A stretch of 64,000 nucleotides of DNA from Candidatus Enterousia sp. Its GTDB lineage: Bacteria > Pseudomonadota > Alphaproteobacteria > Rs-D84. The position numbers were made by a program, and so were the translations under genes. Every line of letters starts with the position of its first letter. The first letter of the stretch is position 1. The DNA lies in the NCBI GenBank assembly GCA_045530935.1, contig JAZSDC010000034.1, positions 875 through 64,874 of the forward strand, written 5' to 3'. Below are positions 9,157 through 57,139 of the stretch, one piece after another. Below the pieces are notes generated by a model. It had not been told where the DNA came from. It saw nothing but the letters and a program-made list of their open reading frames with translations, and did not search any database.

Positions 9157-10344
9157 ATGGGGGATAAATTGAGTAGATTAGCATTTTCATTATACGGTTT
9201 CGCATTTTTTAATAAATTTTTGTTGTTGACCCCTGTTTATACAATATTTATGCTGGCAAACGGTGTCAGCGATTTGCAGCTGTCCACAATGTTTATTTTT
9301 TCGTCTTTGGGAACAATTTTTGGCCAGGTGCCCATTGCATTTGCGGCCAATCATTTTGGGCGCAGGATTACCATGATAATTGGTCAGTTGTTAAAAATGA
9401 CTGCTATATTATTGTGGTTGTATATACCTGTTTACACGGGCTTTGTTATTGGTATGGTGTTATGGGGTATTCAGTCTGGTGCACGCAGTGTCGCATTCGA
9501 GGGCTTGGTTTATGACACTGTTCGTGCAAATGGGCGTGCGCGTGATTACTCGCGAATTTTGGGGCGAAAATCTACATACGAAGCGCTTGGGGTAACATTT
9601 TCGGCAGCTGGTTCATTATTGATGTTTTTAGGATATGGGTGGGTTACATGGTTGTCCGTATTGGGGTTGGTGTTGTCAATTGTGTGTTTGTTGATGTTTC
9701 CAAAATCTTCTGGAATCAAGGAAAAGAAAATCCAATCAGGTCATCTGATTAAATTGATGAAGACCGGATTTAAACTATGTCTTAAGACGCCCTGTTTATT
9801 ATCAATAATGCTGTTTACGATATTGATGGTCAACATTCCATTTTTGGATGATTTTTTAAGTCCTATTGCTATGCAGCTTGGGATACGTGCAGAATATGTT
9901 GGTATTGTGTCCTTCTTCCTGTTGTTGTGTGCGACCACTGGTCAACGCTTGGCGTATCGCTTTTCTCGTATGTCTGACATTGCGGTATATTTATTAGTTG
10001 GCTTGGTTGGGGCGTTATATGTATGTTTTGCGGCATTATATACAAAAGATGCTTTGTGGATTTTGGGGATTGCCTATATGATTTTCTATGGTTTATTTAC
10101 TTTGTTATATTCAAGGTTCCAGCACTTGATACCCCGTCGTAACAGAACGATAGTATTGTCATTATATACCACATTAACATATCTGGTTTATATAATGGTT
10201 TGTGGTATTATTGGACTGGGCAGCAGCCTTGGCAGTTGGCGTTACAGCATAATGATACTTGGTATATTATTGTTTATTTTATGTGGTTGGGGGATTGGAT
10301 TCCTAAGATATAGATGCAAAATTTCAATTGGATGTACGGAATAG
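9157..10344 (+). CDS. MFS-type transporter
   Basis: About 12 predicted TM segments in a 6+6 arrangement; 395 aa. Confidence 0.6.
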   Translation: MGDKLSRLAFSLYGFAFFNKFLLLTPVYTIFMLANGVSDLQLSTMFIFSSLGTIFGQVPIAFAANHFGRRITMIIGQLLKMTAILLWLYIPVYTGFVIGMVLWGIQSGARSVAFEGLVYDTVRANGRARDYSRILGRKSTYEALGVTFSAAGSLLMFLGYGWVTWLSVLGLVLSIVCLLMFPKSSGIKEKKIQSGHLIKLMKTGFKLCLKTPCLLSIMLFTILMVNIPFLDDFLSPIAMQLGIRAEYVGIVSFFLLLCATTGQRLAYRFSRMSDIAVYLLVGLVGALYVCFAALYTKDALWILGIAYMIFYGLFTLLYSRFQHLIPRRNRTIVLSLYTTLTYLVYIMVCGIIGLGSSLGSWRYSIMILGILLFILCGWGIGFLRYRCKISIGCTE

Positions 10345-10386
10345 GGCAATGTTCCTGTACATATTTCCGCAATATTCTTGTAAAGT

Positions 10387-11064
10387 ATGGGTATGAAAAT
10401 TAATTTTCGTACCCTTTTTCTAAAGTCTATACCGTATCTGATGTCAATTGCAGGTGGTATTGTTTTATATACAGGGGCAATTGATAATGCGCCCAATGAA
10501 AATATTCGTGATTTGGTTATAAATGTTTCTGCGTCCTTGCTGTCGATACCGCTGGTTTTTTTGCTGTACGATTATACGAATTCTCGTGTTGCAAACCAGG
10601 TGCGCCGAAATCTTGCAAACAGTATGACGGATAAACTAAATATCTTAATGTTAAGTATAATTGCTCTCTTGCGCGAGTCTATGGGGGTACGCAGCAGATT
10701 GAGCACAGAAAATCTTAATCGCATGTTGACATGGCGCGCGCCTGAGATAGCACGTCGCTTGAAATTGAACAGACGTATCCTAGGACGCTTGCATGAATGC
10801 CACGACGCCCTAGATAATTTATTATATCGTGACAGTCAAAATTCTGTGCTAAATACAGAGCAAAATCGTATTTTGTCATTATTGGCGCGCGATATGACAC
10901 ACTTAATAAATGAAAATAAATTTCGTCACAATCAGCATGTTTCCGCAAAATATATAGAATCCATGATGGGACGAATACTTGATTGGTTGGATTCAGACAG
11001 TGTTGCAGAAATGAATCTGGCGCAACATTTGTCTGATTCAGAAGCCAATAATAAAATTAAATAA
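10387..11064 (+). CDS. Hypothetical membrane-anchored protein
   Basis: An ORF with two N-terminal hydrophobic segments and no recognisable domain. Confidence 0.4.
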   Translation: MGMKINFRTLFLKSIPYLMSIAGGIVLYTGAIDNAPNENIRDLVINVSASLLSIPLVFLLYDYTNSRVANQVRRNLANSMTDKLNILMLSIIALLRESMGVRSRLSTENLNRMLTWRAPEIARRLKLNRRILGRLHECHDALDNLLYRDSQNSVLNTEQNRILSLLARDMTHLINENKFRHNQHVSAKYIESMMGRILDWLDSDSVAEMNLAQHLSDSEANNKIK

Positions 11065-11171
11065 TAAGAAAAGTAGTGTTTTTTTTCTTGCATTTTAATT
11101 TTTTTTATGTAAAAATTGTCCTCGACCTTTGGAAAAAGGATTGAAAAATTCTTTATTCCAGGTCCGTTTTC

Positions 11172-11247
11172 GGGGACATAGCTCAGTTGGTAGAGCAAAT
11201 GACTTTTAATCATTGGGTCCAGGGTTCGAGTCCCTGTGTCCCCACCA
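11172..11247 (+). tRNA. tRNA-Lys (anticodon UUU)
   Basis: I folded the cloverleaf by hand: acceptor GGGGACA/TGTCCCC, anticodon loop CTTTTAA, T-loop TTCGAGT, 3' CCA encoded. Confidence 0.9.
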
Positions 11248-11252
11248 GAAAT

Positions 11253-11400
11253 TCAACGACCGCTTGCTGGTCGTTTTGTTTTTATTGAAAAAAATTGCAT
11301 TTTATGATACAATACACATATTCAGCGGACGACATTTTGTCGTCTTTTTTATTGCCCGCACACGCGGGTGTTTTTTATTTAATCAAAAGGAGTTGTTATG
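11253..11400 (+). repeat. Copy 1 of a ~140-bp promoter plus dual-hairpin leader module
   Basis: It reads: terminator hairpin aacgacc..ggtcgtt+T-run, -35 TTGAAA at 11285-11290, 17-nt spacer, -10 TACAAT at 11308-11313, hairpin gacgac-atttt-gtcgtc+T6, hairpin cccgc-acac-gcggg+T6, then an RBS and ATG. A near-identical copy lies at 12317..12456. Confidence 0.6.
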
Positions 11401-11413
11401 AGCGATATTTGAT

Positions 11414-11665
11414 ATGGGACTTATGAGTAATTTTAGAAACGTAGGAAAAATGGTTCAAAAAACATTAAATGATTCAATGGGTGAAAGTTTGAAAGTGGAC
11501 GGAAAGATTGGAAATAATACAATCGGGGCGCTAAATAATATTCCAGAAAATAAAGTCGATAAATTTATGGATGACTTAAAAGAAAACAGATTAGAATATT
11601 TGCAGAGACTGCCGGATTGGAAAAAATATGGTGACGGTTGGAAAAATCGTACAAATACATATTGA
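11414..11665 (+). CDS. Peptidoglycan-binding (PG_binding_3-like) domain fragment, the C-terminal module of GH108-type lysozymes/endolysins
   Basis: ...VDGKIGNNTIGALNNIPENKVDKFMDDLKENRLEYLQRLPDWKKYGDGWKNRTN matches the usual C-terminal ending of GH108+PG-binding proteins (..W..FG.GW..R). The catalytic part is missing from this ORF. Confidence 0.5.
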   Translation: MGLMSNFRNVGKMVQKTLNDSMGESLKVDGKIGNNTIGALNNIPENKVDKFMDDLKENRLEYLQRLPDWKKYGDGWKNRTNTY

Positions 11666-11697
11666 TTTTGCAGTTCTTTGTTTGCCATAATGTTCGT

Positions 11698-12195
11698 ATG
11701 AAAAAGATGATGATTTTATTGACTTTATTGATTCCTGTGGCTTCATGGGGGCATCCAATCGACGCTTGGATTGATAAAATCATTGAATATGAAACAGCTA
11801 ATAAAAGAACTAACCCTGCCCTTATAAATGCATACGCTGTGAATCAGGAAAAACTGGATATGTATCGGGCGGCCCATCCACGTTTTAATTTCCCAGAACA
11901 TATCAAGGATTTAACGGAACAACAGGCAGAACAAATATTGTATTATTTTTGGGATAATTACAGATTCAGTGATTACAAGTATGACGAGATACTGGAACGG
12001 GTATGGGATTTGATGATACACATGTCAATGGCGGATTTAGATATCGCAATAAACAACTGTATCCGCAAATACTATGATTTTGATGAAAGTTTTTATGCGT
12101 CATTTGGCTCAATTGCATCGGTGCAACTGCTGAACGGAATGGCGCCAAAAAATATTCCGGATTTTCTGACCATATTAAATGCGGTCCAGTATTAA
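11698..12195 (+). CDS. Secreted GH108-like lysozyme-family domain protein
   Basis: Signal peptide MKKMMILLTLLIPVASWG. The motif IKDLTEQQAEQILYYFWDNYRF...VWDLMIHMSMADLDIAINNCIRKYY resembles the GH108 N-terminal domain. Confidence 0.45.
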   Translation: MKKMMILLTLLIPVASWGHPIDAWIDKIIEYETANKRTNPALINAYAVNQEKLDMYRAAHPRFNFPEHIKDLTEQQAEQILYYFWDNYRFSDYKYDEILERVWDLMIHMSMADLDIAINNCIRKYYDFDESFYASFGSIASVQLLNGMAPKNIPDFLTILNAVQY

Positions 12196-12316
12196 ATATC
12201 ATACACAAAGTTTTTGCTATGAATTTGCTTTTGTTGGCATTTATTTCTGGTGATTTTCATTGATTTTGAGTGATTTTCGGGGCGGGGCACATATAAAGAA
12301 AAATATAACAATATTC

Positions 12317-12456
12317 AACAACCGCCTGCTGGTCGTTTTGTTTTTATTGAAAAAATTTTCGTTTTATGATATAATACGCATATTCAGCGGACGACATTTT
12401 GTCGTCTTTTTTATTGCCCGCACACGCGGGTGTTTTTTTACCAAAAGGATTAAACA
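12317..12456 (+). repeat. Copy 2 of the promoter/dual-hairpin leader module
   Basis: Same architecture as copy 1, with -35 TTGAAA at 12347-12352 and a consensus -10 TATAAT at 12370-12375. Its 5' hairpin is degraded. Confidence 0.6.
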
Positions 12457-12620
12457 TGAACAAATTATCAAACAATATACTAAACCTCATGCGCAGCGAC
12501 GCATATTTAAACAGCAACAATCCCAACCACGCTGCTGTCGCCAAACAGATTAGAATATTTGCAGAGACTGCCGGGTTGGGAAAAATATGGTTGTATTTCC
12601 TTGATTATAATTTCCGTTGA
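12456..12620 (+). pseudogene. Frame-shifted remnant related at the DNA level to the 3' end of the 11414..11665 ORF
   Basis: The run aacagattagaatatttgcagagactgccgg.ttgg.aaaaatatggt is shared with 11585..11640 but is read in a different frame here. Confidence 0.4.
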
Positions 12621-12732
12621 AACATGACAACAATTGTGTTATAGTGATACTGATACAGGCGAATATCTGTGTCAAGGCGGATTTAAATCCTAACTTGTCC
12701 TGCCTAAAATGGACTAAAAAAGGAGCATTTAA

Positions 12733-13194
12733 ATGAAAACTTTAAAATATACTGTTCGGGCACCTGTTGCCGATTATCAATCAATTTCCTGTCTGTTTAA
12801 TAATCTAGATTTGATTTTAAGATATCGTGGTGAAATATTATCACAGGAAAGTTTTAGTAATATTTATATCCCTGGTATGTACGTTGGTGGGTTGTACGTT
12901 GGTATGTATCTTTTATCGCTGGGGGATATATTGACATTGTGGGAAAAAACAGAATGGCACACATCAGAAAAATACTATTTTAATATTATTGGTACACCGC
13001 TTAGTGGGATGAATACAGCGCATTGGTACAATACCAATACACAGCAAGTTGAATCAGGGGCATACAATAATGGCAGACTGCAATTCTTGGGGCTGGCGCG
13101 CCCTGCGTTCGATCAGGTACGCCTAAGACGCACAACCACACACAGTGATTTATCTATTTTTGATTTGGTAAAACATTTGTCACGCCAACAATAA
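12733..13194 (+). CDS. Hypothetical protein (153 aa)
   Basis: Intact ORF with no recognised domain; it sits inside the tRNA-Lys-adjacent islet. Confidence 0.4.
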   Translation: MKTLKYTVRAPVADYQSISCLFNNLDLILRYRGEILSQESFSNIYIPGMYVGGLYVGMYLLSLGDILTLWEKTEWHTSEKYYFNIIGTPLSGMNTAHWYNTNTQQVESGAYNNGRLQFLGLARPAFDQVRLRRTTTHSDLSIFDLVKHLSRQQ

Positions 13195-13199
13195 AGAAC

Positions 13200-13472
13200 C
13201 TAGGTAGTCGTTTTTAGTTCATTTAATGTGTCTTGGAATATTTTTGCGAATTCCGCAGGGTTAGTATTTGTTGCTTTTAAAACCTTGATTAATGTTTCTG
13301 TGCTAATCCATCTTGGTTGCCCATTGGCCGAGAATTGCTTGCTGTAATTAAAGGAAGTTGCGTCCAGTCCACTTTTACGCGCCAGACCAGAACAACTTAC
13401 ACCGTTGTTTTTGGCGATGCGGTATATACTTTGCCATAATGCCTTGTGATATTCCATGTTATTTCCTTTCAT
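13200..13472 (-). CDS. Ner/Nlp-like small DNA-binding regulator (Mu Ner / SfsB family HTH), paralog A
   Basis: ...SGLARKSGLDATSFNYSKQF...PRWISTETLIKVLKATNTNPAEF follows the Ner/Nlp pattern (G.spTTL.nAl.r...P..e.i.kaL....eei) as I recall it. Confidence 0.5.
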   Translation of the reverse strand: MKGNNMEYHKALWQSIYRIAKNNGVSCSGLARKSGLDATSFNYSKQFSANGQPRWISTETLIKVLKATNTNPAEFAKIFQDTLNELKTTT

Positions 13473-13599
13473 TATTCAAATAAATCAGATATATACATTT
13501 TAGATAAAAGTGAAATTTGGTCAATGTAAACAATTATAGGTTGAATATTGCCTTTTATATGTTTGCTGTGTGTCAAAAACTTATCCGAATCGTTTTTTA

Positions 13600-13860
13600 T
13601 TAATTTGTATCTGTTTTTGATTTTTTATGATGTTTGTCACAAATTTGTCCAAATTCTTCCATAGTCATATTCAAAGCATCCAGAACCTTGACAACCGTTC
13701 TAAATGATGGATATCTTTGCTTGCCGTATTCATCGTTGCGCTTACTTTTATTGAATATTGTCGCATCTAATCCGCTGTTTATTGCCATCCTAGAAGGGGA
13801 GGTCTGTTGTCGCGCCGCCAATTCGTCTATTGCATCCCACACATTGTGTTGGCTAATCAT
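13600..13860 (-). CDS. Ner/Nlp-like small DNA-binding regulator, paralog B
   Basis: ...MAINSGLDATIFNKSKRNDEYGKQRYPSFRTVVKVLDALNMTMEEF aligns residue for residue with paralog A. Confidence 0.5.
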   Translation of the reverse strand: MISQHNVWDAIDELAARQQTSPSRMAINSGLDATIFNKSKRNDEYGKQRYPSFRTVVKVLDALNMTMEEFGQICDKHHKKSKTDTN

Positions 13861-14020
13861 GATCGTCTCTTTTATATTTATTGCATATGGGGCTTATTAT
13901 GCAATAAATCCTAGACGGTGGCAATAGGTTGGTTTTCTTATTTTGTATACATTGAAATCAATCTGTGCGCGATATGTTGGTGTAAAATCGTGTTTGTTTT
14001 TTGCCTTGTGATGACTTATT

Positions 14021-14197
14021 TTATGTTCTGGCAAAAATCTGATTATCTTCGATTTTCACCGCTTGGCCATTAATCATTATATTTTCTGCAACAACTGGTG
14101 TGCTGGTGTTTATGTTAAACAGAACAGGTGTCTCTAGATTTGACAATGCTAATGTCGTCCACATAGAAAATAAAACAACAACAAATAAACGGTTCAT
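14021..14197 (-). CDS. Small secreted peptide (58 aa), below the ORF-track length cutoff
   Basis: A strong RBS, GGAGGAGCAACC, precedes the ATG at 14197. MNRLFVVVLFSMWTTLALSNLETP... looks like a signal peptide. I translated the frame by hand. Confidence 0.45.
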   Translation of the reverse strand: MNRLFVVVLFSMWTTLALSNLETPVLFNINTSTPVVAENIMINGQAVKIEDNQIFART

Positions 14198-14379
14198 AGG
14201 TTGCTCCTCCTATCTCACTCAGATTACGCCGTCATAAAACGATACAAAATATTTATATTCTTGGGCAAAAATTTTTTGCCAATAAAATTAAATGTTATAA
14301 ATTCTATGTTGCAAAAATGCAAAATCCGTTTAATATAATAAACTTAAAAATGATAAACACTAACCTTGGGGGAACAAAC

Positions 14380-15741
14380 ATGCCAGCAAAAACAGTAAAT
14401 GATATCGTTGCCTTGTGCAAGCGTCGTGGTTTTATCTTTACCGGATCTGAAATTTATGGCGGTCTGGGCGGCGCATATGACTATGGTCCATATGGCGTTG
14501 AATTAATGAAGAATATCCGTAACGCATGGTGGAATTCTATGATTTATTCACGTGATGATATCGAAGGGTTAGATGCGGCATTAATATCAAATCGTTTGTT
14601 ATGGAAATATTCTGGGCACGAGGCAGGCTTTTCCGATCCATTGGTTGAATGTAAAAAGTGCGGTACTCGCATGCGCCAGGATAAAATGAAGGATATGACC
14701 AAATGTGACAATTGTGGCAGCACAGATATCACCGAACCGCGCGCATATCAGTTAATGATGGGGTTGTCTATTGGCGCGACTGCTGATGGCGCGGTTAATG
14801 CGTACCTGCGTCCAGAAACCGCAACAACAACATATACAAATTTCAAAAATGTTTTGGATGCCAAACCACATAAGCTGCCATTTGGTATTGCGCAAATCGG
14901 CAAAGCGTTCCGGAACGAGATTTCGCCACGTGGATTTGTGTTTCGTATGCGTGAATTTGAACAGGCAGAAATGCAGTATTTTGTAAATCCGTCTGATGAT
15001 GAACAGTATCACAAAATGTGGATGGATGCACGTATGGCATGGTGGATAAACGAATTGGGAATACCTGCTGAAAAGTTGCGTTTCATGCCACACGAAAAAT
15101 TAGCACACTATGCCAAGGCTGCGGTTGACATTGAATATGAATTTCCAGATGGTTTTGATGAAGTCGAAGGTATTCATAATCGCCAAGATTTTGACCTGGG
15201 GTCACATACCAAGGCACAATCTGATTTTAAGATTAATGCAAATGTATTAGAAAACAAGGACAGTACAACTAAATTGTCATACAGCGATCCGCAAAGCGGT
15301 CAGAATTTCTTGCCATATGTAATTGAAACCGCAATGGGGGTAAATCGCGCAATGCTGGCAGTGATGATTCAGGCATACGAAGAAGAAGACCTGGGCGAGG
15401 GCAAGTCGCGTACTGTCTTGAAATTAAAACCATCTCTATCACCAGTCAAGGCTGCGGTGATTCCATTGGCACGTAATGTCCCAGAATTGTTAAACATTTC
15501 AAATGATATTGTGGCAACTTTGCGCAAAATGGCGGTTGGACGCATAGAATTGGAAAATTCTGGCAATATCGGTAAAAATTATCGTCGTCATGATGAAATT
15601 GGCACACCGGTATGCATAACTGTTGATCACCAGACAACAGAAGATGGTACTGTCACATTACGTTATCGTGACACAATGGCACAAGAACGTGTCACAATTG
15701 CAGATGTCCCATCAAGGGTATTGCAGATAATAAATTCATAA
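14380..15741 (+). CDS. glyQS: Glycine--tRNA ligase, dimeric alpha2 type
   Basis: MPAKTVNDIVALCKRRGFIFTGSEIYGGLGGAYDYGPYG... is the alpha2 GlyRS N-terminus. GGGGGA precedes the ATG at 14380. Confidence 0.9.
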   Translation: MPAKTVNDIVALCKRRGFIFTGSEIYGGLGGAYDYGPYGVELMKNIRNAWWNSMIYSRDDIEGLDAALISNRLLWKYSGHEAGFSDPLVECKKCGTRMRQDKMKDMTKCDNCGSTDITEPRAYQLMMGLSIGATADGAVNAYLRPETATTTYTNFKNVLDAKPHKLPFGIAQIGKAFRNEISPRGFVFRMREFEQAEMQYFVNPSDDEQYHKMWMDARMAWWINELGIPAEKLRFMPHEKLAHYAKAAVDIEYEFPDGFDEVEGIHNRQDFDLGSHTKAQSDFKINANVLENKDSTTKLSYSDPQSGQNFLPYVIETAMGVNRAMLAVMIQAYEEEDLGEGKSRTVLKLKPSLSPVKAAVIPLARNVPELLNISNDIVATLRKMAVGRIELENSGNIGKNYRRHDEIGTPVCITVDHQTTEDGTVTLRYRDTMAQERVTIADVPSRVLQIINS

Positions 15742-15769
15742 AGAATATTTTATCTTTTAAATTGTTAAA

Positions 15770-15793
15770 TACGCCCCATAATTATGGGGCGTA
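15770..15793. terminator. Bidirectional terminator hairpin (tacgcccc-ataattat-ggggcgta) between glyRS and the DUF378 gene
   Basis: A perfect inverted repeat with AT-rich flanks. Confidence 0.6.
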
Positions 15794-15825
15794 TATGTTG
15801 AACATGAAACTTATTTCGCGTTTTT

Positions 15826-16068
15826 TTAACGGTCGCGTGCCACCGGTCTATCAACAAACATCCATATCAGCCATATCAGTGCGGCGATACCAATGATTGC
15901 ATATACGATATTGCTGGCCAATGTCGCAGGGCCAAACAAAAATGCCACTAAGTCAAATCCAAAGATACCAATCAGTCCCCAGTTCAGGGCACCGATAAAT
16001 GTCAATGGCATAAGAACATAGCTTGTTAGTCCTCTCATCTCTTTTTCTCCTTTTCCAGATTTTTGCAC
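15826..16068 (-). CDS. DUF378-family small membrane protein
   Basis: An 80-aa protein with two TM segments (LIGIFGFDLVAFLFG...). Confidence 0.55.
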   Translation of the reverse strand: MQKSGKGEKEMRGLTSYVLMPLTFIGALNWGLIGIFGFDLVAFLFGPATLASNIVYAIIGIAALIWLIWMFVDRPVARDR

Positions 16069-16164
16069 GTCTTAGTATAAGACATTACTTATTATACTGA
16101 TTTTACAGTGTCTCAACAATCGGAACAAAAACCCAGGAAAGGATTCTTAGACAACAAAAAGATA

Positions 16165-17106
16165 TTATATATGTTGATTTATGTACGCCATAACAGAATT
16201 AATTCTATTAATTGCTTCTGGGTGCAATCCGTACGGACGATAATTTTTTATAATAAATTGATATGCGTGTTTACAGCATATTTTTACATTTTGTGGTCCA
16301 GAATAATTCAGCGCCGCTGCAAACATATTTGGTAACATATTAATCCAAAACCAATTATGAACATCATAAAATACAGAATGTTTATTGCAATAATCAAAAT
16401 AAGCAATTGCAATTTTTAATGGGTCTATATTCAGTATTTTTTTCTGAAATGCGATATTCATAATAGAACCTGCCCTTCGACGATAAACATACAGTTTTTC
16501 AGGAACAAATGTTATACGTTTGATCCATAATCTGTATGCGGGCCAAAAAAATTCATCTTCATGCTTCAAGCCCACAGGAAACTTTATTTTTCTGTGTCGT
16601 ATAATATCTGTACGAAAAATTTTACCCCATGCCGCACCATAGCAAAAATCATGTTCTTGTCTGCTGATATTAAAAGTTGAGTTCCAACGTATTGTAAAGA
16701 AAGAATCGTCAATTTCTTTTAGTTCGTGATTTGCTTCATAAATCACATTTACGCCACAAACAGCGACATCTGATTGATTTTTTTCAATCGCATCCAACAT
16801 GACAGAACATGCGTTTGCCTCAAACATATCATCAGAATCACAAAACATAACGTATTTTGCATGCGCGTGTTTCAGACCATGATTGCGACTATATGACAAA
16901 CCACGATTACGCCAATTGCGAATAATCTTTATTCGTTTGTCTTGTTTTGCGAAATTGCGAACAATTTGCATTGATTTATCGCTGCCACGATCATCAACGC
17001 ATATTATTTCGATATCAGTGCATGTCTGATTTATCAATGACGTCATACATGCTTCGACATATGCTTCTACATTATAAATTGGCACAATAATTGATATTTT
17101 TGGCAT
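16165..17106 (-). CDS. Family 2 glycosyltransferase
   Basis: PKISIIVPIYNVEAYVEACMTSLINQT...CVDDRGSD...FCDSDD are GT2 DxD-type motifs. Confidence 0.8.
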   Translation of the reverse strand: MPKISIIVPIYNVEAYVEACMTSLINQTCTDIEIICVDDRGSDKSMQIVRNFAKQDKRIKIIRNWRNRGLSYSRNHGLKHAHAKYVMFCDSDDMFEANACSVMLDAIEKNQSDVAVCGVNVIYEANHELKEIDDSFFTIRWNSTFNISRQEHDFCYGAAWGKIFRTDIIRHRKIKFPVGLKHEDEFFWPAYRLWIKRITFVPEKLYVYRRRAGSIMNIAFQKKILNIDPLKIAIAYFDYCNKHSVFYDVHNWFWINMLPNMFAAALNYSGPQNVKICCKHAYQFIIKNYRPYGLHPEAINRINSVMAYINQHI

Positions 17107-17118
17107 GTTGCACCCACC

Positions 17119-19725
17119 TTATTTTTTCCACAGTAATAAACGTAAAAAGTTTATTGGTATAATCAGCAAAGACATCGCAAATATAACTGCCCACTGTGTT
17201 GCAGACAATGGAACCAGTTGCAACAAGCTGCCACCAAATGTTACACAGAACATATTTGCAGCCAATACACCGATTGCGACCATTATGAACATTGGATTTG
17301 TTTGTATGCGCGCCAGCAGATTAAACCCATCTACGCGGACACAAAATCCATTAACAATTGCCACTGTTACTAATAATGCAAATCTTGCAGACATATATGT
17401 ATCTGGTGTTGCGAACAACTGTTCAATGAATGGAATTTGGAACAGTGCAAATATCGCAACAAACCCAATAGTTGTCCACAAAATCTGCATCAAGACAGGA
17501 CGCGAAATAAGTGGGGCGTTTTTTCCTTGGGCTGGTTCTCTCATATATTCTGGACGCGATGGTTCCCCACCAAATGCTAGTGAATTTAAACTGTCCATAA
17601 CTATATTGATTATCAGTATTTGAACTGCTGTGAATGCATCAAAACCAAACAGTATTGGATACAAGATGCTTAAAATAACCAACCCAAAATTAATTGGCAG
17701 TTGGAATTTTAAAAAGCTTTTTACATTATGAACAAATGTGCGCCCCAGCAATATACTATTTGCAATCGATATAAAGTTATTATCTGTAATTATTATATCG
17801 CTGGATTCTTTGCATACGTCTGTGCCATCACCCATTGCGAATCCGACATCTGCGCGCTTCAATGCGGGTGCGTCATTAGTGCCGTCGCCACACATACCAA
17901 TGCATTTATTTATTGATTGGGCCAGTTTTACGATACGTAACTTTGTCCCAGGGGTTGCGCGTGCAATAACCTTAATTTTTGGCAGTAATTTTTTTGCCTG
18001 CGCGTCTGTCATTTCGTCCAGTTCTGCAGCTGTTATAGCAATATCGTTATCAGATGATATTATCTTGCAGTCTTTTGCAATTGCGCGTGCAGTATCTAAT
18101 ATATCACCTGTAATCATCATGACCTGTACACCCGAAGTATTCATTGAATTTACAACCTCTGGCACCCCTGGTCGAACGTCATCACGCATTGCGACTAATG
18201 AAATAAATATTAGGTTATCTGGTATTGTGTCTGCAAATTTACCGTCTGGTGAAAATGCAGTTGCGACCAAGCGCATCGCACGGTTGGCGTTTTCGGATAT
18301 TAAATTATTAATAACTTTCTTGTTGATTTTATGTAATTTGCCTTGTTCGTCGATATATTTATCTGTATGTGCTAAAATGACTTCTGGCGCACCCATAAAA
18401 TAAGATATTCCATTATCTGTACGTACAGCTGAAAATTTGTTTGTGCTATTAAATGCCAGTCTATCCTTTATTATGGTTTCACGTTGGATATTGTTAATAT
18501 AATTCATTTCTGGGCGTATTGCTTCAAACAGGGCGCGTCCTGTCATATTTCCACCAATTAAATCGCCATCTGGGTCATATACAACCCCTGTAACAAGGGC
18601 AATGTTTTTAAGAAATGTTTCTTTTGCATGAAATCCGTTGTTTAATACAAATCCCATGTCTTCACCATTGCCTAAAAAATTATGTAATGGTTGTAAAAAT
18701 CCTTTTGTTAGGGTGCCTGTTTTGTCGGTGCATAACAGTTGAATATTTCCTGCCTCTGGTATCTTATGTGGATTTTTTGCCAAAATATTATTTTTAATCA
18801 TTGTGTTAACATTTTGACCGGTAATTATGCCAATAATAAATGGCAGGCCTTCTGGAACTGCAGCTACAAATATTGTTAATGCGATTGTTGCAGAAGATAA
18901 TATTGTATATATTAATCCTGCATCTCCGCTGACACCATTTTTTATCAGATTGACAGCTAATAAAACCCCAAAAATCACGACTGCGCACACGGAACCAATT
19001 TTGCTAATCAGTGCAGCCAGATTGTCCAATTGAATCTGTAAAGTTGTCTTAACTTCGTTAATGCTGTTCAAAGAAGCCATAATTTTAGCATTTTCTGTTT
19101 CCATACCAATTCGCGCAACGCGTATTTTGCCTTCTCCGCTTAAAACAGTTGTTCCTGAAAAAACCAGGTGTTTATCAACATAACTATCTGCTGTAATCGC
19201 AGCATTACGATTATATTTGTATGTGTCTGATACAGGTGTTTTTTCTGCCTCGGCGCTTTCACCATTTAATATTGCATTATTCACACTGATTGCGCCTTCG
19301 ACCAAGTACCCATCGGCGCAAATTGTTTCGCCTGCCTGTACAATAATGATATCATCAACCACTACGTCATAGCTGTCCAATCGTTTGACCACTCCATCAC
19401 GTAAAACGTTTGCATACAATTGAGATGATTTACGGCGTAATTCCTCTGCACTGCGTTGCGTTTTTAATTTTGTCCAAACAGTCGTAGTCGCTACGACAAA
19501 CAACACAATACCGATTCCTATTGCCTCGGAAATACTGCCATAACCACTGATGCCTAATGCAACAAATATCAGCATCAGCAGTAATAATATCATGTTTAAT
19601 TTATCCTGGAATACTTCCACAAAAAACTGCCATCCCGTTTTTAACTTTGGGGCTGCAACTTCGTTTCGTCCATATTTTTCGCGGCTTTTTATAACTTGTG
19701 CTTGTGTCAAGCCATTCAAATTCAT
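17119..19725 (-). CDS. P-type cation-transporting ATPase (P2/P3-type, Ca2+/Mg2+-like)
   Basis: Carries DKTGTLT, TGD, GDGTND and PEGL motifs; 868 aa. Confidence 0.85.
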   Translation of the reverse strand: MNLNGLTQAQVIKSREKYGRNEVAAPKLKTGWQFFVEVFQDKLNMILLLLMLIFVALGISGYGSISEAIGIGIVLFVVATTTVWTKLKTQRSAEELRRKSSQLYANVLRDGVVKRLDSYDVVVDDIIIVQAGETICADGYLVEGAISVNNAILNGESAEAEKTPVSDTYKYNRNAAITADSYVDKHLVFSGTTVLSGEGKIRVARIGMETENAKIMASLNSINEVKTTLQIQLDNLAALISKIGSVCAVVIFGVLLAVNLIKNGVSGDAGLIYTILSSATIALTIFVAAVPEGLPFIIGIITGQNVNTMIKNNILAKNPHKIPEAGNIQLLCTDKTGTLTKGFLQPLHNFLGNGEDMGFVLNNGFHAKETFLKNIALVTGVVYDPDGDLIGGNMTGRALFEAIRPEMNYINNIQRETIIKDRLAFNSTNKFSAVRTDNGISYFMGAPEVILAHTDKYIDEQGKLHKINKKVINNLISENANRAMRLVATAFSPDGKFADTIPDNLIFISLVAMRDDVRPGVPEVVNSMNTSGVQVMMITGDILDTARAIAKDCKIISSDNDIAITAAELDEMTDAQAKKLLPKIKVIARATPGTKLRIVKLAQSINKCIGMCGDGTNDAPALKRADVGFAMGDGTDVCKESSDIIITDNNFISIANSILLGRTFVHNVKSFLKFQLPINFGLVILSILYPILFGFDAFTAVQILIINIVMDSLNSLAFGGEPSRPEYMREPAQGKNAPLISRPVLMQILWTTIGFVAIFALFQIPFIEQLFATPDTYMSARFALLVTVAIVNGFCVRVDGFNLLARIQTNPMFIMVAIGVLAANMFCVTFGGSLLQLVPLSATQWAVIFAMSLLIIPINFLRLLLWKK

Positions 19726-19824
19726 TTTCTACTTCCTTTGGCAAATAATTAATAAAAAATGTATACACTTTTTAGTTTATAAAAACAAGAAATAAAAACG
19801 TATTATATAAGATTAAAATGCTTT

Positions 19825-19851
19825 TGACATACACTTGTGTTTTATTATAGT
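19825..19851 (+). promoter_or_regulatory. Putative sigma70-type promoter for lrgAB
   Basis: TTGACA at 19825-19830, then a 15-nt spacer and TATAGT at 19846-19851. The short spacer lowers confidence. Confidence 0.3.
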
Positions 19852-19878
19852 ATTTGTATCAAGACACATGGGGGGCGT

Positions 19879-20250
19879 GTGAAATATATTTACCAATTTT
19901 GTATAATAATACTTTTTGTCATGTTGGGTGAATTGTGCGAATATTTTATCCCACTGCCTATCGCGGGCAGCATTTATGGTTTGGTATTATTATTTCTTTC
20001 ATTGGTTTTTGGGATTGTAAAGTTGCACTGGGTTGAAGATGTTGCAAATTGGTTTCATAACACAATGGCGTTATTTTTTGTTGCGCCTGCTGTTGCTGTG
20101 ATTGATATATGGGGCGACATTTCAGATGTTTGGTGGATTTTAGTATTGTTGATGATTGTTGTATATATTGTTACAATGCTGATGACTGGACTTACTGCGG
20201 ATGCATTGATTAATAAAAGTAATAATCAGAAAAGGGGGCGCAGGAAATGA
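19879..20250 (+). CDS. lrgA: LrgA/CidA holin-like murein hydrolase modulator
   Basis: A small protein with four TM segments. A GTG start at 19879 follows GGGGGGC. Its stop overlaps the start of lrgB. Confidence 0.7.
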   Translation: MKYIYQFCIIILFVMLGELCEYFIPLPIAGSIYGLVLLFLSLVFGIVKLHWVEDVANWFHNTMALFFVAPAVAVIDIWGDISDVWWILVLLMIVVYIVTMLMTGLTADALINKSNNQKRGRRK

Positions 20251-31035: not shown

Positions 31036-31366
31036 ATCTTAAGATGAACGTATAAGCCGGATTCTGTCCTGCCATTGGGCCAGTATCTTTCGGATACCAC
31101 CCCACGGTAGTGGGCATGATTAATCTGCATACTATATTACTATAATATGTCAAGCTTTCTACCCGCCCCCGATGCGGGACACATATTGGGGGCCTATTTG
31201 AAATTGCTGCGCGCAGAGATTGCCCGTTTCACTCGAATTTAATCGTTTACGTCACTGTTGCTCTAATCGTCGGGTCGCCCCGCCTGGTATATTAGCCAGT
31301 ACGCTGTCCCGTGCAGTCCGGACTTTCCTCCGTCTATCTTGCGACAAACGGCCATGCCCTGTACAT
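31036..31366 (-). ncRNA. rnpB: RNase P RNA (bacterial type A)
   Basis: On the minus strand, GGAGGAAAGTCCGGACTGCAC gives the P4 5' strand, ...GACAGAATCCGGCTTATACGTTCATCTT gives the P4 3' strand and P1, and the 5' AAGATGTAC pairs with the 3' GTTCATCTT. Upstream are TTGAAC (16 nt) TATTAT, and a gcgcccaagggcgc terminator follows the 3' end. The ends are approximate, within about 5 nt. Confidence 0.85.
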
Positions 31367-31434
31367 CTTGCGGGTGTATAATATCATATTTTTTATTCAG
31401 TTCAACAAGAAATCCCCAAAATGGGGATTTTGTA

Positions 31435-46380: not shown

Positions 46381-47292
46381 TTATTCCTTTGCACGCGGGT
46401 GTGCGTTTGAATATATGCTTGTTATTTCTTCTAAATTAACTTTGGTGTACAGTTGGGTCGTTGACAGGGATGAATGCCCCAGCAATTCTTGCAAACTGCG
46501 CAAATCTGCACCATCTGCCAGCAATGCCGTCGCGAACGTATGGCGCAACGCATGTGGTGTTACAAAGTCTGGTAATTGTAAATAATGTCGCAGGTTTTCC
46601 ACAACTTTTTCAGCCATGCGGGGCGACATAGGCAGGCCACGTACGCTTCGAAACAATACATCGTTTGCATCGTTTCCAAAAGGGCGCAGTTTTTCATATT
46701 TTTCAATCGCGTTCCATACTGCGGGTAACACAGGAACCAGTCTTTCTTTATTGCCTTTTCCAACAATTCGCAAGACATCTGGGCGATTTTTAACATCGTT
46801 GTTACACAGATTTAATGCTTCGGATATTCGCAGACCACACCCAAACAGCAAAACGACCAACGCCCAATCGCGCGCAGCAATCCATGGTTCGTGCGCATCA
46901 ATTTGTTTAATAGCGCCATACATATTTTCGACATCAATAGGATTAATGGCTTTCGATAATTTTCTAGGGGCTTTTGGTGATGATATCAATCCAATTGCCT
47001 CGTTTTTTATTGCGTATTTTTTGTCGATAAAGCGAAAGAAACAGCGTATCGAAGATAATGCGCGTGCCGTTGCGGTATGCGACAGTCCGCGTTTTTGTCT
47101 GTTTGCCAAATATGCCCGAAAGCAGATTGTGTCTGCGCGACTAAAATCACCCGGGCTGGGTGTACAACCGTTATATTCGGATAAGAATTTGATAAAGTCG
47201 CCAACGTCATTTTCGTATGCTGTCACTGTATGGGCAGAATATTTTTTTATCTGTACCAGATAGTCAACAAAATTGGCGACAATATCTTTCAT
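46381..47292 (-). CDS. Tyrosine site-specific recombinase, XerC/XerD family
   Basis: Catalytic R..HxxR..Y pattern (RHTFATALL...LGHSSLSTTQLYTKV). Confidence 0.85.
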   Translation of the reverse strand: MKDIVANFVDYLVQIKKYSAHTVTAYENDVGDFIKFLSEYNGCTPSPGDFSRADTICFRAYLANRQKRGLSHTATARALSSIRCFFRFIDKKYAIKNEAIGLISSPKAPRKLSKAINPIDVENMYGAIKQIDAHEPWIAARDWALVVLLFGCGLRISEALNLCNNDVKNRPDVLRIVGKGNKERLVPVLPAVWNAIEKYEKLRPFGNDANDVLFRSVRGLPMSPRMAEKVVENLRHYLQLPDFVTPHALRHTFATALLADGADLRSLQELLGHSSLSTTQLYTKVNLEEITSIYSNAHPRAKE

Positions 47293-57062: not shown

Positions 57063-57139
57063 GCGAGCGTAGCTCAGTTGGCTAGAGCGCAACCTTGCCA
57101 AGGTTGAGGTCGAGGGTTCGAGCCCCTTTGCTCGCACCA
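57063..57139 (+). tRNA. tRNA-Gly (anticodon GCC)
   Basis: I folded the cloverleaf by hand: acceptor GCGAGCG/TGCTCGC, anticodon loop TTGCCAA, T-loop TTCGAGC, CCA encoded. A terminator hairpin follows. Confidence 0.88.

Follow-up and report, generated by a model that had tools for sequence, protein, structure and literature searches.

A conserved promoter-proximal tandem-terminator leader ahead of peptidoglycan-hydrolase genes in Candidatus Enterousia and its possible role in regulated read-through

In the PR'/tR'/Q system of phage lambda, and also with Q21 and Q82, transcription starts at a strong constitutive promoter and by default ends at a terminator behind it, so that a short RNA is made unless Q, engaged near the promoter, brings about read-through. 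By analogy, the closest known system to the one described here is that of AlpA in Pseudomonas aeruginosa. AlpA binds within the promoter and enables RNA polymerase (RNAP) to pass the single terminator that precedes alpBCDE as well as the two that precede the amidase gene ampDh3 (PMC7969949; PMC9371919). In Alphaproteobacteria, antitermination of phage-derived gene transfer agent (GTA) loci has been described for GafZ of the Caulobacter GTA (PMC11150451) and for the Q21-like BrrG of the Bartonella GTA (BaGTA; bioRxiv 10.1101/2024.11.20.624540). The design, a promoter-loaded antiterminator that acts on leader terminators and controls lysis genes, is known from lambda Q and AlpA; the cassette reported here appears to be a new form of it. 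The cassette was found in a 64-kb stretch (the window) of contig JAZSDC010000034.1 from Candidatus Enterousia sp. (assembly GCA_045530935.1). The Enterousia (order Rs-D84), with genomes of less than 1 Mb, are common gut inhabitants of animals and humans, and none has been cultured (PMC12306168). In the cassette, a strong promoter is followed within 60 nt by two hairpins of the intrinsic-terminator kind and then by a gene, in most cases one of phage origin for a peptidoglycan-attacking protein. We propose that the module is a promoter-proximal tandem-terminator leader which gates lytic genes through regulated read-through, a reading in which, judged from sequence, belief and doubt are evenly balanced.

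The cassette is present twice in the window as a direct repeat of 126 nt (11251-11376 and 12313-12438), ungapped and 94% identical; the similarity reaches through the ribosome-binding site (RBS) to ~140 nt if a 4-nt indel is allowed, which bears out the two-copy unit of ~140 bp given in an earlier reading of the letters by themselves (the sequence-only reading). When the unit was compared with the whole window by using BLAST, only these two copies of the sequence were found. All seven differences between them lie upstream of 11317, and the last 60 nt, which form the transcribed leader, are identical (hypergeometric P ~0.01). The promoters were located by sequence scan at 11285-11313 (+) in copy 1 (TTGAAA, 17-nt spacer, TACAAT) and at 12347-12375 (+) in copy 2 (TTGAAA, 17-nt spacer, TATAAT), just as the sequence-only reading had them; in addition, both carry a TG one base 5' of the -10 hexamer and are of the extended -10 type. 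They match the consensus at 10-11 of 12 positions plus the TG motif, and the promoter of copy 2 (11 of 12 plus TG) was the top match in the 40 kb scanned and was also first in a scan of 1-20000.

In copy 1, hairpin 1 (GGACGAC-ATTTT-GTCGTCT and U6; 11327-11351, +) starts at about +8 and is followed by hairpin 2 (TGCCCGC-ACAC-GCGGGTG and U6; 11353-11376, +); the corresponding hairpins of copy 2 lie at 12389-12413 (+; U6) and 12415-12439 (+; U7). The stems have 5-7 bp, with 4-5 G-C pairs each, and are followed by 6-8 U. Both hairpins of both copies passed an intrinsic-terminator scan, so that the two GC stem-loops with T-runs ahead of an RBS and start codon, another element of the sequence-only reading, were confirmed. 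Folding of either copy upheld them too: both hairpins were recovered in the minimum free energy (MFE) and centroid structures (z = -3.1 and -3.7), and none of 200 shuffled sequences folded as well. As read from the sequence and from junction alignments, copy 1 continues with the RBS AAAAGGAG and an ATG at 11398, with a stop at codon 5 (MSDI*; 11385-11412, +), and copy 2 with the RBS AAAAGGA and an ATG at 12456, which opens an open reading frame (ORF) of 54 aa (12443-12620, +).

Related loci (labelled L with a number) were taken from metagenome-assembled genomes (MAGs) and metagenome contigs, the sources of all related sequences used. When one genome of each prokaryotic species was scanned for a twin-hairpin pattern, 29 loci were found in 26 MAGs, every one of them labelled 'Candidatus Enterousia' or Alphaproteobacteria (order Rs-D84) and derived from animal or human gut; the number of genomes is a lower bound, as the first pattern fixed both hairpin stems. 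A profile search with these loci (nhmmer) yielded extra copies outside the exact pattern, often 2-2.3 kb apart in tandem arrays of cassette, effector and small gene, and a metagenome scan anchored on hairpin 2 alone yielded more copies from gut, some of them clearly diverged. The sequence-only reading had counted absence of the unit elsewhere and unconserved hairpins as signs against it; neither applied, as the unit was found in 26 genomes with the hairpins kept. Among the carriers is JBKSMY (locus L013), an Enterousia genome of 876 kb (PMC12306168). Rfam searches at gathering and permissive thresholds recovered only tRNAs and RNase P in the window and nothing for the leader, whose best sub-threshold scores were 20-25 bits against thresholds of 50-55 (rseX, RyhB; E ~1-2.6). 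The cassette, which has no Rfam family and is not described in PMC12306168, is clade-wide and apparently undescribed.

Between species, the cassettes are 81-87% identical to those of the window, compared with 60-69% at the DNA level for the flanking protein-coding genes. When 48 distinct cassettes were aligned, little or no variation was seen in the -35 TTG, in the TG-n-TA..AT or in the stem and T-run of either hairpin; the spacer, the discriminator and the loop of hairpin 2 were variable. The RNAalifold consensus of the 48 leaders contained both hairpins, with pairing in 98% of the alignment cells; slid registers collapsed. Diverged cassettes have other stems in hairpin 1 (GGCGAC/GTCGCC, GACGGC/GCCGTT, ACGGT/ACCGT, GGCGC/GTGCC, GGCAC/GTGCC and ACGACCG/CGGTCGT), and despite this replacement the pairing and the T-run immediately behind it were retained. 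Compensatory change in hairpin 1 affected all five scored pairs, each altered on both sides, and none of 500 shuffles reached the observed values. The stem of hairpin 2 was invariant in all relatives, apart from its closing pair (G-U, A-U or G-C), and its loop varied; as this stem was required by both search patterns, its invariance says little either way. Because G-U pairs occur and U-runs stand on one side only, the elements are better read as RNA terminators than as a DNA palindrome. On the strength of these alignments the cassette is under selection, because it is conserved in 26 genomes and in metagenomes, outdoes the flanking coding DNA in conservation and shows compensatory changes in hairpin 1.

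The genes behind the cassettes are almost exclusively of one functional class. Of the 48 distinct cassette-gene junctions, 46 open into a loosely related set of genes, whole or as remnants, for peptidoglycan hydrolases or proteins with the MuF motif, and two into an unknown ORF of 216 aa. The second U-run is followed at ~5-15 nt by an RBS and ATG in almost every one of the 48 cassettes; where it is not, a deletion has fused the cassette to the interior of a gene. Proteins of the MQTPKFLQELIS, MNKLSN and MSDIWDG types consist of a Cys-rich MuF-like motif and a variable C-terminal domain, which may be GH108 with or without PG_binding_3, GH24 (phage lysozyme/pesticin) or a Tlde1/YkuD L,D-transpeptidase. 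Further cassette-led types begin with MSIKEYTSMR (PG_binding_1 and Tlde1) or MEPIYISAFPG (C-terminal region of MuF), or are stand-alone GH24 lysozymes. The match to PF04233 (MuF) is limited to profile positions ~49-111 of 112, the C-terminal ~50 residues, with scores of 40.2 bits (L013) and 30.1 bits (L044) above the cut-off of 29.6 and of 27.8 and 22.1 bits for others below it; TIGR01641 scores of the cassette-led proteins were below the cut-off. The nearest phage relatives of the catalytic part are endolysins of ~30% identity, and a few Achromobacter phages encode a hypothetical protein that spans both the MuF motif and GH108. Behind the effectors lie small ORFs whose products have a signal peptide or a membrane segment, a pattern as expected for putative immunity genes. 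The neighbours of the cassettes are tRNA and housekeeping genes (alaS, fabI, frr, uppS, lysS); phage structural genes were not found within 3 kb of cassettes in other genomes.

Both effector genes of the window are, by comparison with intact relatives, deletion remnants. The intact protein that starts with MNKLSNNILNL has 285 aa (L026:757-1614, L007:75-932 and L010) and combines the C-terminal motif of Phage_Mu_F with a GH108 muramidase domain and PG_binding_3. An ORF of 83 aa behind copy 1 (11414-11665, +; Pfam PF09374, E = 7.5e-8; PHROG endolysin family) is a remnant that corresponds to its final 83 residues, including the PG_binding_3 part, with 87-95% identity to three intact genes (92-95% to the C-termini of those in L010 and L026) and 72% to that of L007. 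What follows directly in copy 1 is the RBS of another effector type, MSDIWDG, together with its first four codons, joined at a shared GCGATATTTG to the interior of the MNKLSN-type gene; the stop at codon 5 is the result of this out-of-frame fusion. Behind copy 2, the first 31 codons of the MNKLSN type run, at AAACAG, into the 3' end of that gene type in a shifted frame, and the 54-aa ORF is a remnant with a large internal deletion. The junctions (11398-11412 and 12456-12620) lie at microhomologies of 6-10 nt. Because the copy 2 remnant keeps the 3' end of the same type of effector gene, a second repeat (D2, 49 nt, effector-gene 3' end, 96% identity) is present at 11584-11632 (+) and 12543-12591. 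The lysis-type gene fragments of the sequence-only reading were identified by Pfam, PHROG and intact relatives as pieces of peptidoglycan-hydrolase genes.

The sole intact gene still served by copy 1 encodes a protein of 165 aa with a signal peptide (11698-12195, +), a divergent GH108-like paralogue with a weak match to PF05838. It is ~90% identical in L007, L010, L019 and L026, where it occupies the same place behind the MNKLSN-type effector, and 96 relatives were detected, of which all named ones come from Alphaproteobacteria-type MAGs. The protein is a candidate immunity or partner protein of this effector; if it acts in immunity, it would do so in an unusual way, as a periplasmic mimic of the catalytic domain of the toxin itself. 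Identity between the 165-aa protein and the GH108 domain of the preceding effector is 31-39% over 62-80 residues, depending on the species.

Truncated or fused effectors were also seen behind cassettes elsewhere (L026:2945-3103, L027:6827-6970, L014, L021, L016, L043 and L059), with recurrent breaks after ~31-50 codons, at the leader itself or into mid-gene; an identical cassette-to-mid-gene junction is common to three species. Judged by these sequences, decay of effector genes or reshuffling of their modules is common in other species and not particular to the window, and the repeated truncation may reflect either decay or recombinational shuffling of modules. Between copy 2 and two helix-turn-helix (HTH) genes lies an ORF of 153 aa (12733-13194, +) with a good promoter of its own (TTGAAA-17-TATAGT, 12617-12645); searches of Pfam, NCBIfam, PDB sequences and the fetched loci gave no match to it.

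The terminator and promoter scans of the window revealed a third cassette (6489-6603, -) of the same architecture and unrelated sequence. Its -35 (TTGATT, 6603-6598) overlaps the stop codon of an upstream gene for an 816-aa protein and is followed by a 17-nt spacer and TG-T-TATAAT (to 6575). Nine bases past the -10, a first hairpin (AGCCACCA-GAAA-TGGTGGCT and T5, 6565-6541) is followed by a second (CCTGCT-T7-AGCAGG and T7, 6536-6512), the RBS AAGGA and an ATG at 6488. The target gene (188 aa, 5922-6488, -) encodes an Mtd_N protein (N-terminal domain of phage major tropism determinant or tail fibre; Pfam PF18454, E = 7.5e-13), of which 195 relatives were detected. Searching the previously fetched cassette loci with tblastn gave no match to this gene, and its orthologous loci were obtained through a protein search. 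The order 816-aa gene, Mtd_N gene, acetate kinase is kept in four orthologous loci that were fetched. The promoter is kept as well, with terminators of wholly different sequence; in L145/L146 these are two different hairpin-U-run units. The 816-aa protein (6600-9050, -) is 36-37% identical in relatives, always encoded directly upstream of the Mtd_N gene, and probably a coiled-coil protein by its sequence; it has no match in Pfam or NCBIfam.

Exactly three pairs of terminators that are <=25 nt apart were counted in the 64 kb, namely the two copies and the third cassette; ordinary genes of the window end in single hairpin-T-run terminators of the same kind. The 29 related loci contained 38 tandem pairs, of which 33 belonged to the canonical cassette, and two more were promoter-less pairs before a lysozyme gene. 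Twin hairpins that lack the promoter were seen at L026:3960-4000 (+), L027:5165-5207 (-), L085:6425-6476 (-) and, as a partial match, L003:714-774 (-); in three of the pairs hairpin 1 is GGCGGC-GATAT-GCCGTC or GGCGGT-GATAT-GCCGTC, and they lie between an upstream gene for a small membrane protein and a GH24 lysozyme gene. Such pairs may damp expression inside operons too. Unrelated environmental contigs contain two tandem CCCGC...GCGGG hairpins with U-runs, linked by ATTG and directly before an RBS and ATG (L074:1143-1187, L086:7351-7394, L090:408-451 and L049:52-97). Twin terminators before genes may be more widespread, possibly in phages.

From the observed anatomy, conservation, covariation and association with one class of genes, the following mechanism is proposed. 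A strong sigma-70-type extended -10 promoter would start transcription at ~11320 in copy 1 and ~12382 in copy 2; hairpin 1 begins 14 nt past the end of the -10 hexamer and ~7-8 nt past the predicted start. Within the first ~60 nt of RNA, the U-run of terminator 1 would end at ~+31 and that of terminator 2 at ~+57, and most transcripts would by default stop there, as short RNAs of ~30 and ~57 nt. The downstream gene would be made only by polymerases that pass both terminators, as there is no room for a further promoter between them and the gene, which leaves read-through as the only route of expression. The arrangement suggests that risky enzymes stay off until something permits read-through by RNAP.

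The leader has no ORF, at most ~8 nt precede hairpin 1, and no competing structure, leader peptide or aptamer was found by folding, sequence reading and Rfam. A riboswitch, a T-box or translation-coupled attenuation is unlikely, with ~8 nt before hairpin 1, only two hairpins that fold and no Rfam match. Since there is no alternative leader structure, two readings remain, a trans-acting factor or simple leakiness. The switch for read-through would be a trans-acting factor that makes RNAP resistant to termination at or near the promoter, as lambda Q or AlpA does. Such a factor is favoured over leakiness because a near-consensus promoter and two terminators are conserved jointly, because the cassette is limited to one functional class of potentially self-harmful genes and because the architecture recurs where the sequence is unrelated. 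It is conceivable, although we would rather doubt it, that the cassettes form a dispersed antitermination regulon in which one factor, unrelated to Q, AlpA, GafZ or NusG paralogues, co-activates MuF hydrolases, lysozymes and the Mtd-like protein. Such a regulon would be a kit of weapons or attachment proteins with which to attack or feed on neighbours, or would serve a burst of self-lysis.

Several points weigh against regulated read-through. Termination itself, the regulation of read-through and the protein factor are all three things that we infer from the letters. Neither Q, AlpA, a NusG paralogue nor an extra sigma factor was found in a Pfam sweep of the 44 window proteins, which cover 64 kb of a genome of ~0.9 Mb (~7%), and neither a regulator nor a phage structural gene was found among the 25 largest ORF families within 3 kb of cassettes (212 ORFs clustered); the Q-like antiterminator that the sequence-only reading sought elsewhere in the genome is accordingly missing from the window proteins and from these surroundings in relatives. 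The -10-like pause motif NANNNT of the lambda kind stands at a fixed offset of +3 in 21 of the 48 cassettes (44%, with ~7% expected) and is missing from the rest, and no part of the cassette varies more than the promoter spacer, to which Q and AlpA bind in their own systems. Only one terminator was found in the Mtd_N orthologues of L149 and L150/L151, and none is obvious in L147/L148. The intergenic promoter-less pairs (L026, L027) suggest that the hairpin pair can act without the cassette promoter, and the invariance of the hairpin 2 stem is in part an artefact of the search patterns. Complementarity of the spacer with the initial transcribed segment, judged by eye on the alignments, showed no consistent pattern.

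Constitutive attenuation is the strongest and simplest rival and is to be taken seriously, even if we think it unlikely: leaky terminators behind a strong promoter would set a fixed, low and maybe noisy level of enzyme, no factor would be needed, and the short RNAs would be by-products. The anatomy and the conservation fit it equally, no antiterminator gene was found in the window or beside the cassettes, and the number of terminators in the Mtd_N leaders, one or two among orthologues, is as for a tunable damper. However, a weak promoter would do the same more cheaply, and instead a strong promoter and two terminators are conserved jointly in >26 species; restriction to one functional gene class has, moreover, the look of a single-switch regulon.

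It is rather improbable that an Hfq-type small RNA (sRNA) of ~57 nt is the main product and that the ORFs are incidental. Such an RNA would come from several sibling genes, and its layout, in which the conserved 5' end AUUCAGCG precedes a hairpin, a U-rich linker and then the hairpin of a terminator, is the usual one of trans-acting sRNAs. The sole near-matches in Rfam are Hfq-binding RNAs (rseX, RyhB, isrD; all far below threshold), Enterousia cassettes differ little in the leader, its unpaired 5' octamer and the loop of hairpin 1 included, and the 60-nt leaders of the two window copies are identical. Yet an RBS and ATG follow within ~5-15 nt in nearly all 48 cassettes, with genes of one functional class. 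The 5' octamer and the sequence of hairpin 1 are lost in diverged cassettes, in the third cassette and in its orthologues, so that shape and not a seed appears to be selected, and the complement of the putative seed, CGCTGAAT, is about as frequent in the window as chance would have it (3 sites outside the cassettes, with 2.3 expected). The small RNA of ~60 nt that the sequence-only reading offered as an alternative is in keeping with the anatomy and is weakened by the near-invariable RBS and ORF 5-15 nt past the second U-run. In one Enterousia genome, an extended -10 (TGATATAAT) is followed 24 nt on by two different hairpin-U-run units with no close ORF (L025:5989-6035, -), a candidate free-standing small RNA by its sequence.

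A leader that boosts expression, in which the hairpins shield the 5' end of the mRNA from RNase E/G and the U-runs are S1 translation enhancers, is quite improbable. The promoter is strong, an RNase E/G gene lies in the window (2806-4599) and the second U-run abuts the Shine-Dalgarno sequence; but hairpin 1 stands ~8 nt from the 5' end and not at it, and a G+C hairpin with 6-8 U, present twice and surviving sequence turnover, is the signature of an intrinsic terminator, the same type in which ordinary genes of this genome end.

Very improbable, too, is a switch of initiation or a roadblock in which hairpin 1 is the DNA operator (GACGAC-N5-GTCGTC, +8 to +24) of a dimeric XRE-type repressor. Two paralogous genes for small XRE-type HTH proteins (90 and 86 aa, 38% identical to each other) lie at 13200-13472 and 13600-13860 (both -). 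The family has 18 detected relatives, and its genes lie within ~2.7 kb of cassettes in L001, L007, L012, L013 and L019, five other species and hence six with that of the window, in different contexts (next to alaS in L007, fabI in L013 and glyS in the window). The AlphaFold model (pLDDT 87) has an XRE/Cro fold, and its best PDB fold matches are the restriction-modification controller proteins C.Esp1396I and C.BclI, ClgR and HipB (TM ~0.7, with a Foldseek E of only 0.03-0.1); controller proteins are timers of toxic enzymes. An AlpA-like nature of the HTH proteins was rejected, as the fold is XRE/Cro and the 50 matches listed include neither an AlpA nor a Q structure. The arms of hairpin 1 do form a perfect inverted repeat of 6 bp. 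Against an operator, G-U pairs in some copies keep the RNA pairing and break the palindrome, the adjacent U-run would be left unexplained, the sequence of hairpin 1 differs in relatives and in the third cassette, and HTH genes are missing from most cassette loci. As an added layer, an operator role of the palindrome is possible. The HTH proteins are, going by the model, possible regulators of the cassette, a lead and not a finding.

That the cassette is a functionless scar of local duplication and deletions in a decaying locus has a negligible chance of being right: the genes behind both copies have been cut down by deletions between microhomologies of 6-10 nt, and copy 2 drags along a useless copy of the tRNA-Lys terminator, but in at least 26 other species intact genes stand behind the cassette, which outdoes coding DNA in conservation, shows compensatory changes and, in copy 1, still drives the intact conserved gene at 11698-12195.

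The left part of the repeat is the terminator of tRNA-Lys(UUU) (11172-11247, +; ARAGORN; Rfam tRNA, 77.5 bits), the end of which lies 4 nt before the onset of copy 1. The terminator hairpin (AACGACCG-CTTGC-TGGTCGTT and a T-rich run; 11255-11284, +; -9.4 kcal/mol) passed the terminator scan, and the same hairpin (stem-loop 11255-11275) follows tRNA-Lys in L009 and L015. In copy 2 a decayed version without an upstream tRNA (12317-12337, +) has a G-to-A change in the stem and, with this mismatch, was not called as a plus-strand terminator by the scan; the terminator-like hairpin that the sequence-only reading placed upstream in both copies stands for copy 1 and not for copy 2. Integration at the tRNA through an att site found no support, as the repeat starts 4 nt past the tRNA end and holds no tRNA sequence. 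An integron attC site was rejected: ATTCAAC is present at the left end of the repeat with no GTTRRRY partner, no IntI integrase was found, and each unit has its own promoter. The sole tyrosine recombinase of the window (46381-47292; Phage_integrase and SAM-like N-terminal domains), which we take to be Xer-like, lies 34 kb off.

The window is otherwise ordinary housekeeping chromosome of 40% G+C, with genes such as those for the class A RNase P RNA (31036-31370, -; 183 bits) and tRNA-Gly(GCC) (57063-57139, +). A lambdoid late-promoter/tR' cassette, as the sequence-only reading had it, agrees with the architecture and the lysis-type target and fails, within the window, on the prophage context and the Q gene. 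The twin-hairpin pattern had no match in 2.9 million viral contigs, and only the tRNA part of the 1.3-kb region matched a phage collection in a BLAST search. The order 816-aa protein, major facilitator superfamily transporter, 225-aa protein, tRNA-Lys is common to the window and to L015, L016 and L006; the three proteins are 36-68% identical (the 225-aa protein 64-68%), and the window hence stems from a relative of these organisms. In several species a G+C-rich conserved element of ~150 nt lies between tRNA-His and the cassette (L010:6208-6390, -; L011:5550-5727, +; L006:1262-1430, -; L008:1128-1300, -); it starts with GGGCGGTTCGG, holds GGTTCG(A/G) and ends with the last ~17 nt of tRNA-His (TCCGGTTATCCGCCCCA). 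Its sequence suggests an RNA that resembles a tRNA or a miniature tmRNA, or else a scar of integration, and it was recognised by neither ARAGORN nor Rfam.

Compared with described systems, the products resemble the MuF polymorphic toxins (Jamet et al. 2017, PMC5576092) in the Phage_Mu_F/SPP1 gp7 motif with interchangeable C-terminal toxic domains, in the possible immunity genes that follow and in the shuffling of C-terminal modules and remnants. They differ from these toxins in that the MuF domain is partial, with most scores at or below the Pfam cut-off, no portal gene or prophage is nearby, and the cassette-led toxic domains are all directed at peptidoglycan (GH108, GH24, Tlde1/YkuD). The predicted short RNA is like Hfq-type or 5' untranslated region-derived sRNAs in its single-stranded 5' end, hairpin, U-rich linker and terminator with a U tail; unlike them, it is fused to an RBS and ORF, loses its unpaired sequence in diverged copies and has no Rfam family.

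With lambda PR' the cassette shares a promoter and terminator before late or lysis genes and, as proposed here, read-through by a factor that acts near the promoter. It differs in that there is no prophage and no Q gene in the window, the -10-like pause element is inconsistent, two terminators lie at ~+31 and ~+57 where lambda has one at ~+194, and many dispersed single-gene units take the place of one long late operon. GafZ and BrrG are similar in that they serve domesticated phage genes at separate loci in Alphaproteobacteria through processive antitermination from a specific promoter. Their leaders are of 229 to ~860 nt, with terminators inside or far from the promoter, and a head-tail cluster is served; no capsid or tail cluster and no relative of GafZ or BrrG was found in the sequence examined here. 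The AlpA regulon is alike in that it is chromosomal, lies outside an active prophage and comprises several loci, each with a promoter and one or more leader terminators before lytic or cell-wall genes; read-through is brought about by a small DNA-binding protein loaded at the promoter (PMC7969949; PMC9371919; PMC9998450). Here, in contrast, no AlpA homologue or fold was found in the window, the small HTH proteins nearby are of the XRE/Cro type, the spacer is variable, the terminators lie inside the first 60 nt, and the targets are MuF-motif hydrolases that resemble exported effectors rather than a holin-type self-lysis cassette. The cassette is not assigned to a Q, AlpA, GafZ or NusG-paralogue system, because no such gene was found among the 44 window proteins or in the largest ORF families near cassettes, NANNNT has its fixed offset in only 44% of the cassettes and the spacer varies.

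The cassette is a compact (~125 bp) natural case of promoter-proximal tandem terminators and offers a handle on a probable programme of interbacterial attack or lysis in uncultured gut bacteria. Its signature of sequence and structure provides a means to trace the full regulon in MAGs, and the regulator by phylogenetic profiling. If it merely terminates leakily, it is a tidy example of damped toxic-gene expression; if a new antiterminator is at work, the theme of promoter-loaded antitermination over domesticated phage functions, known from Q, AlpA and GafZ, would gain a new lineage.

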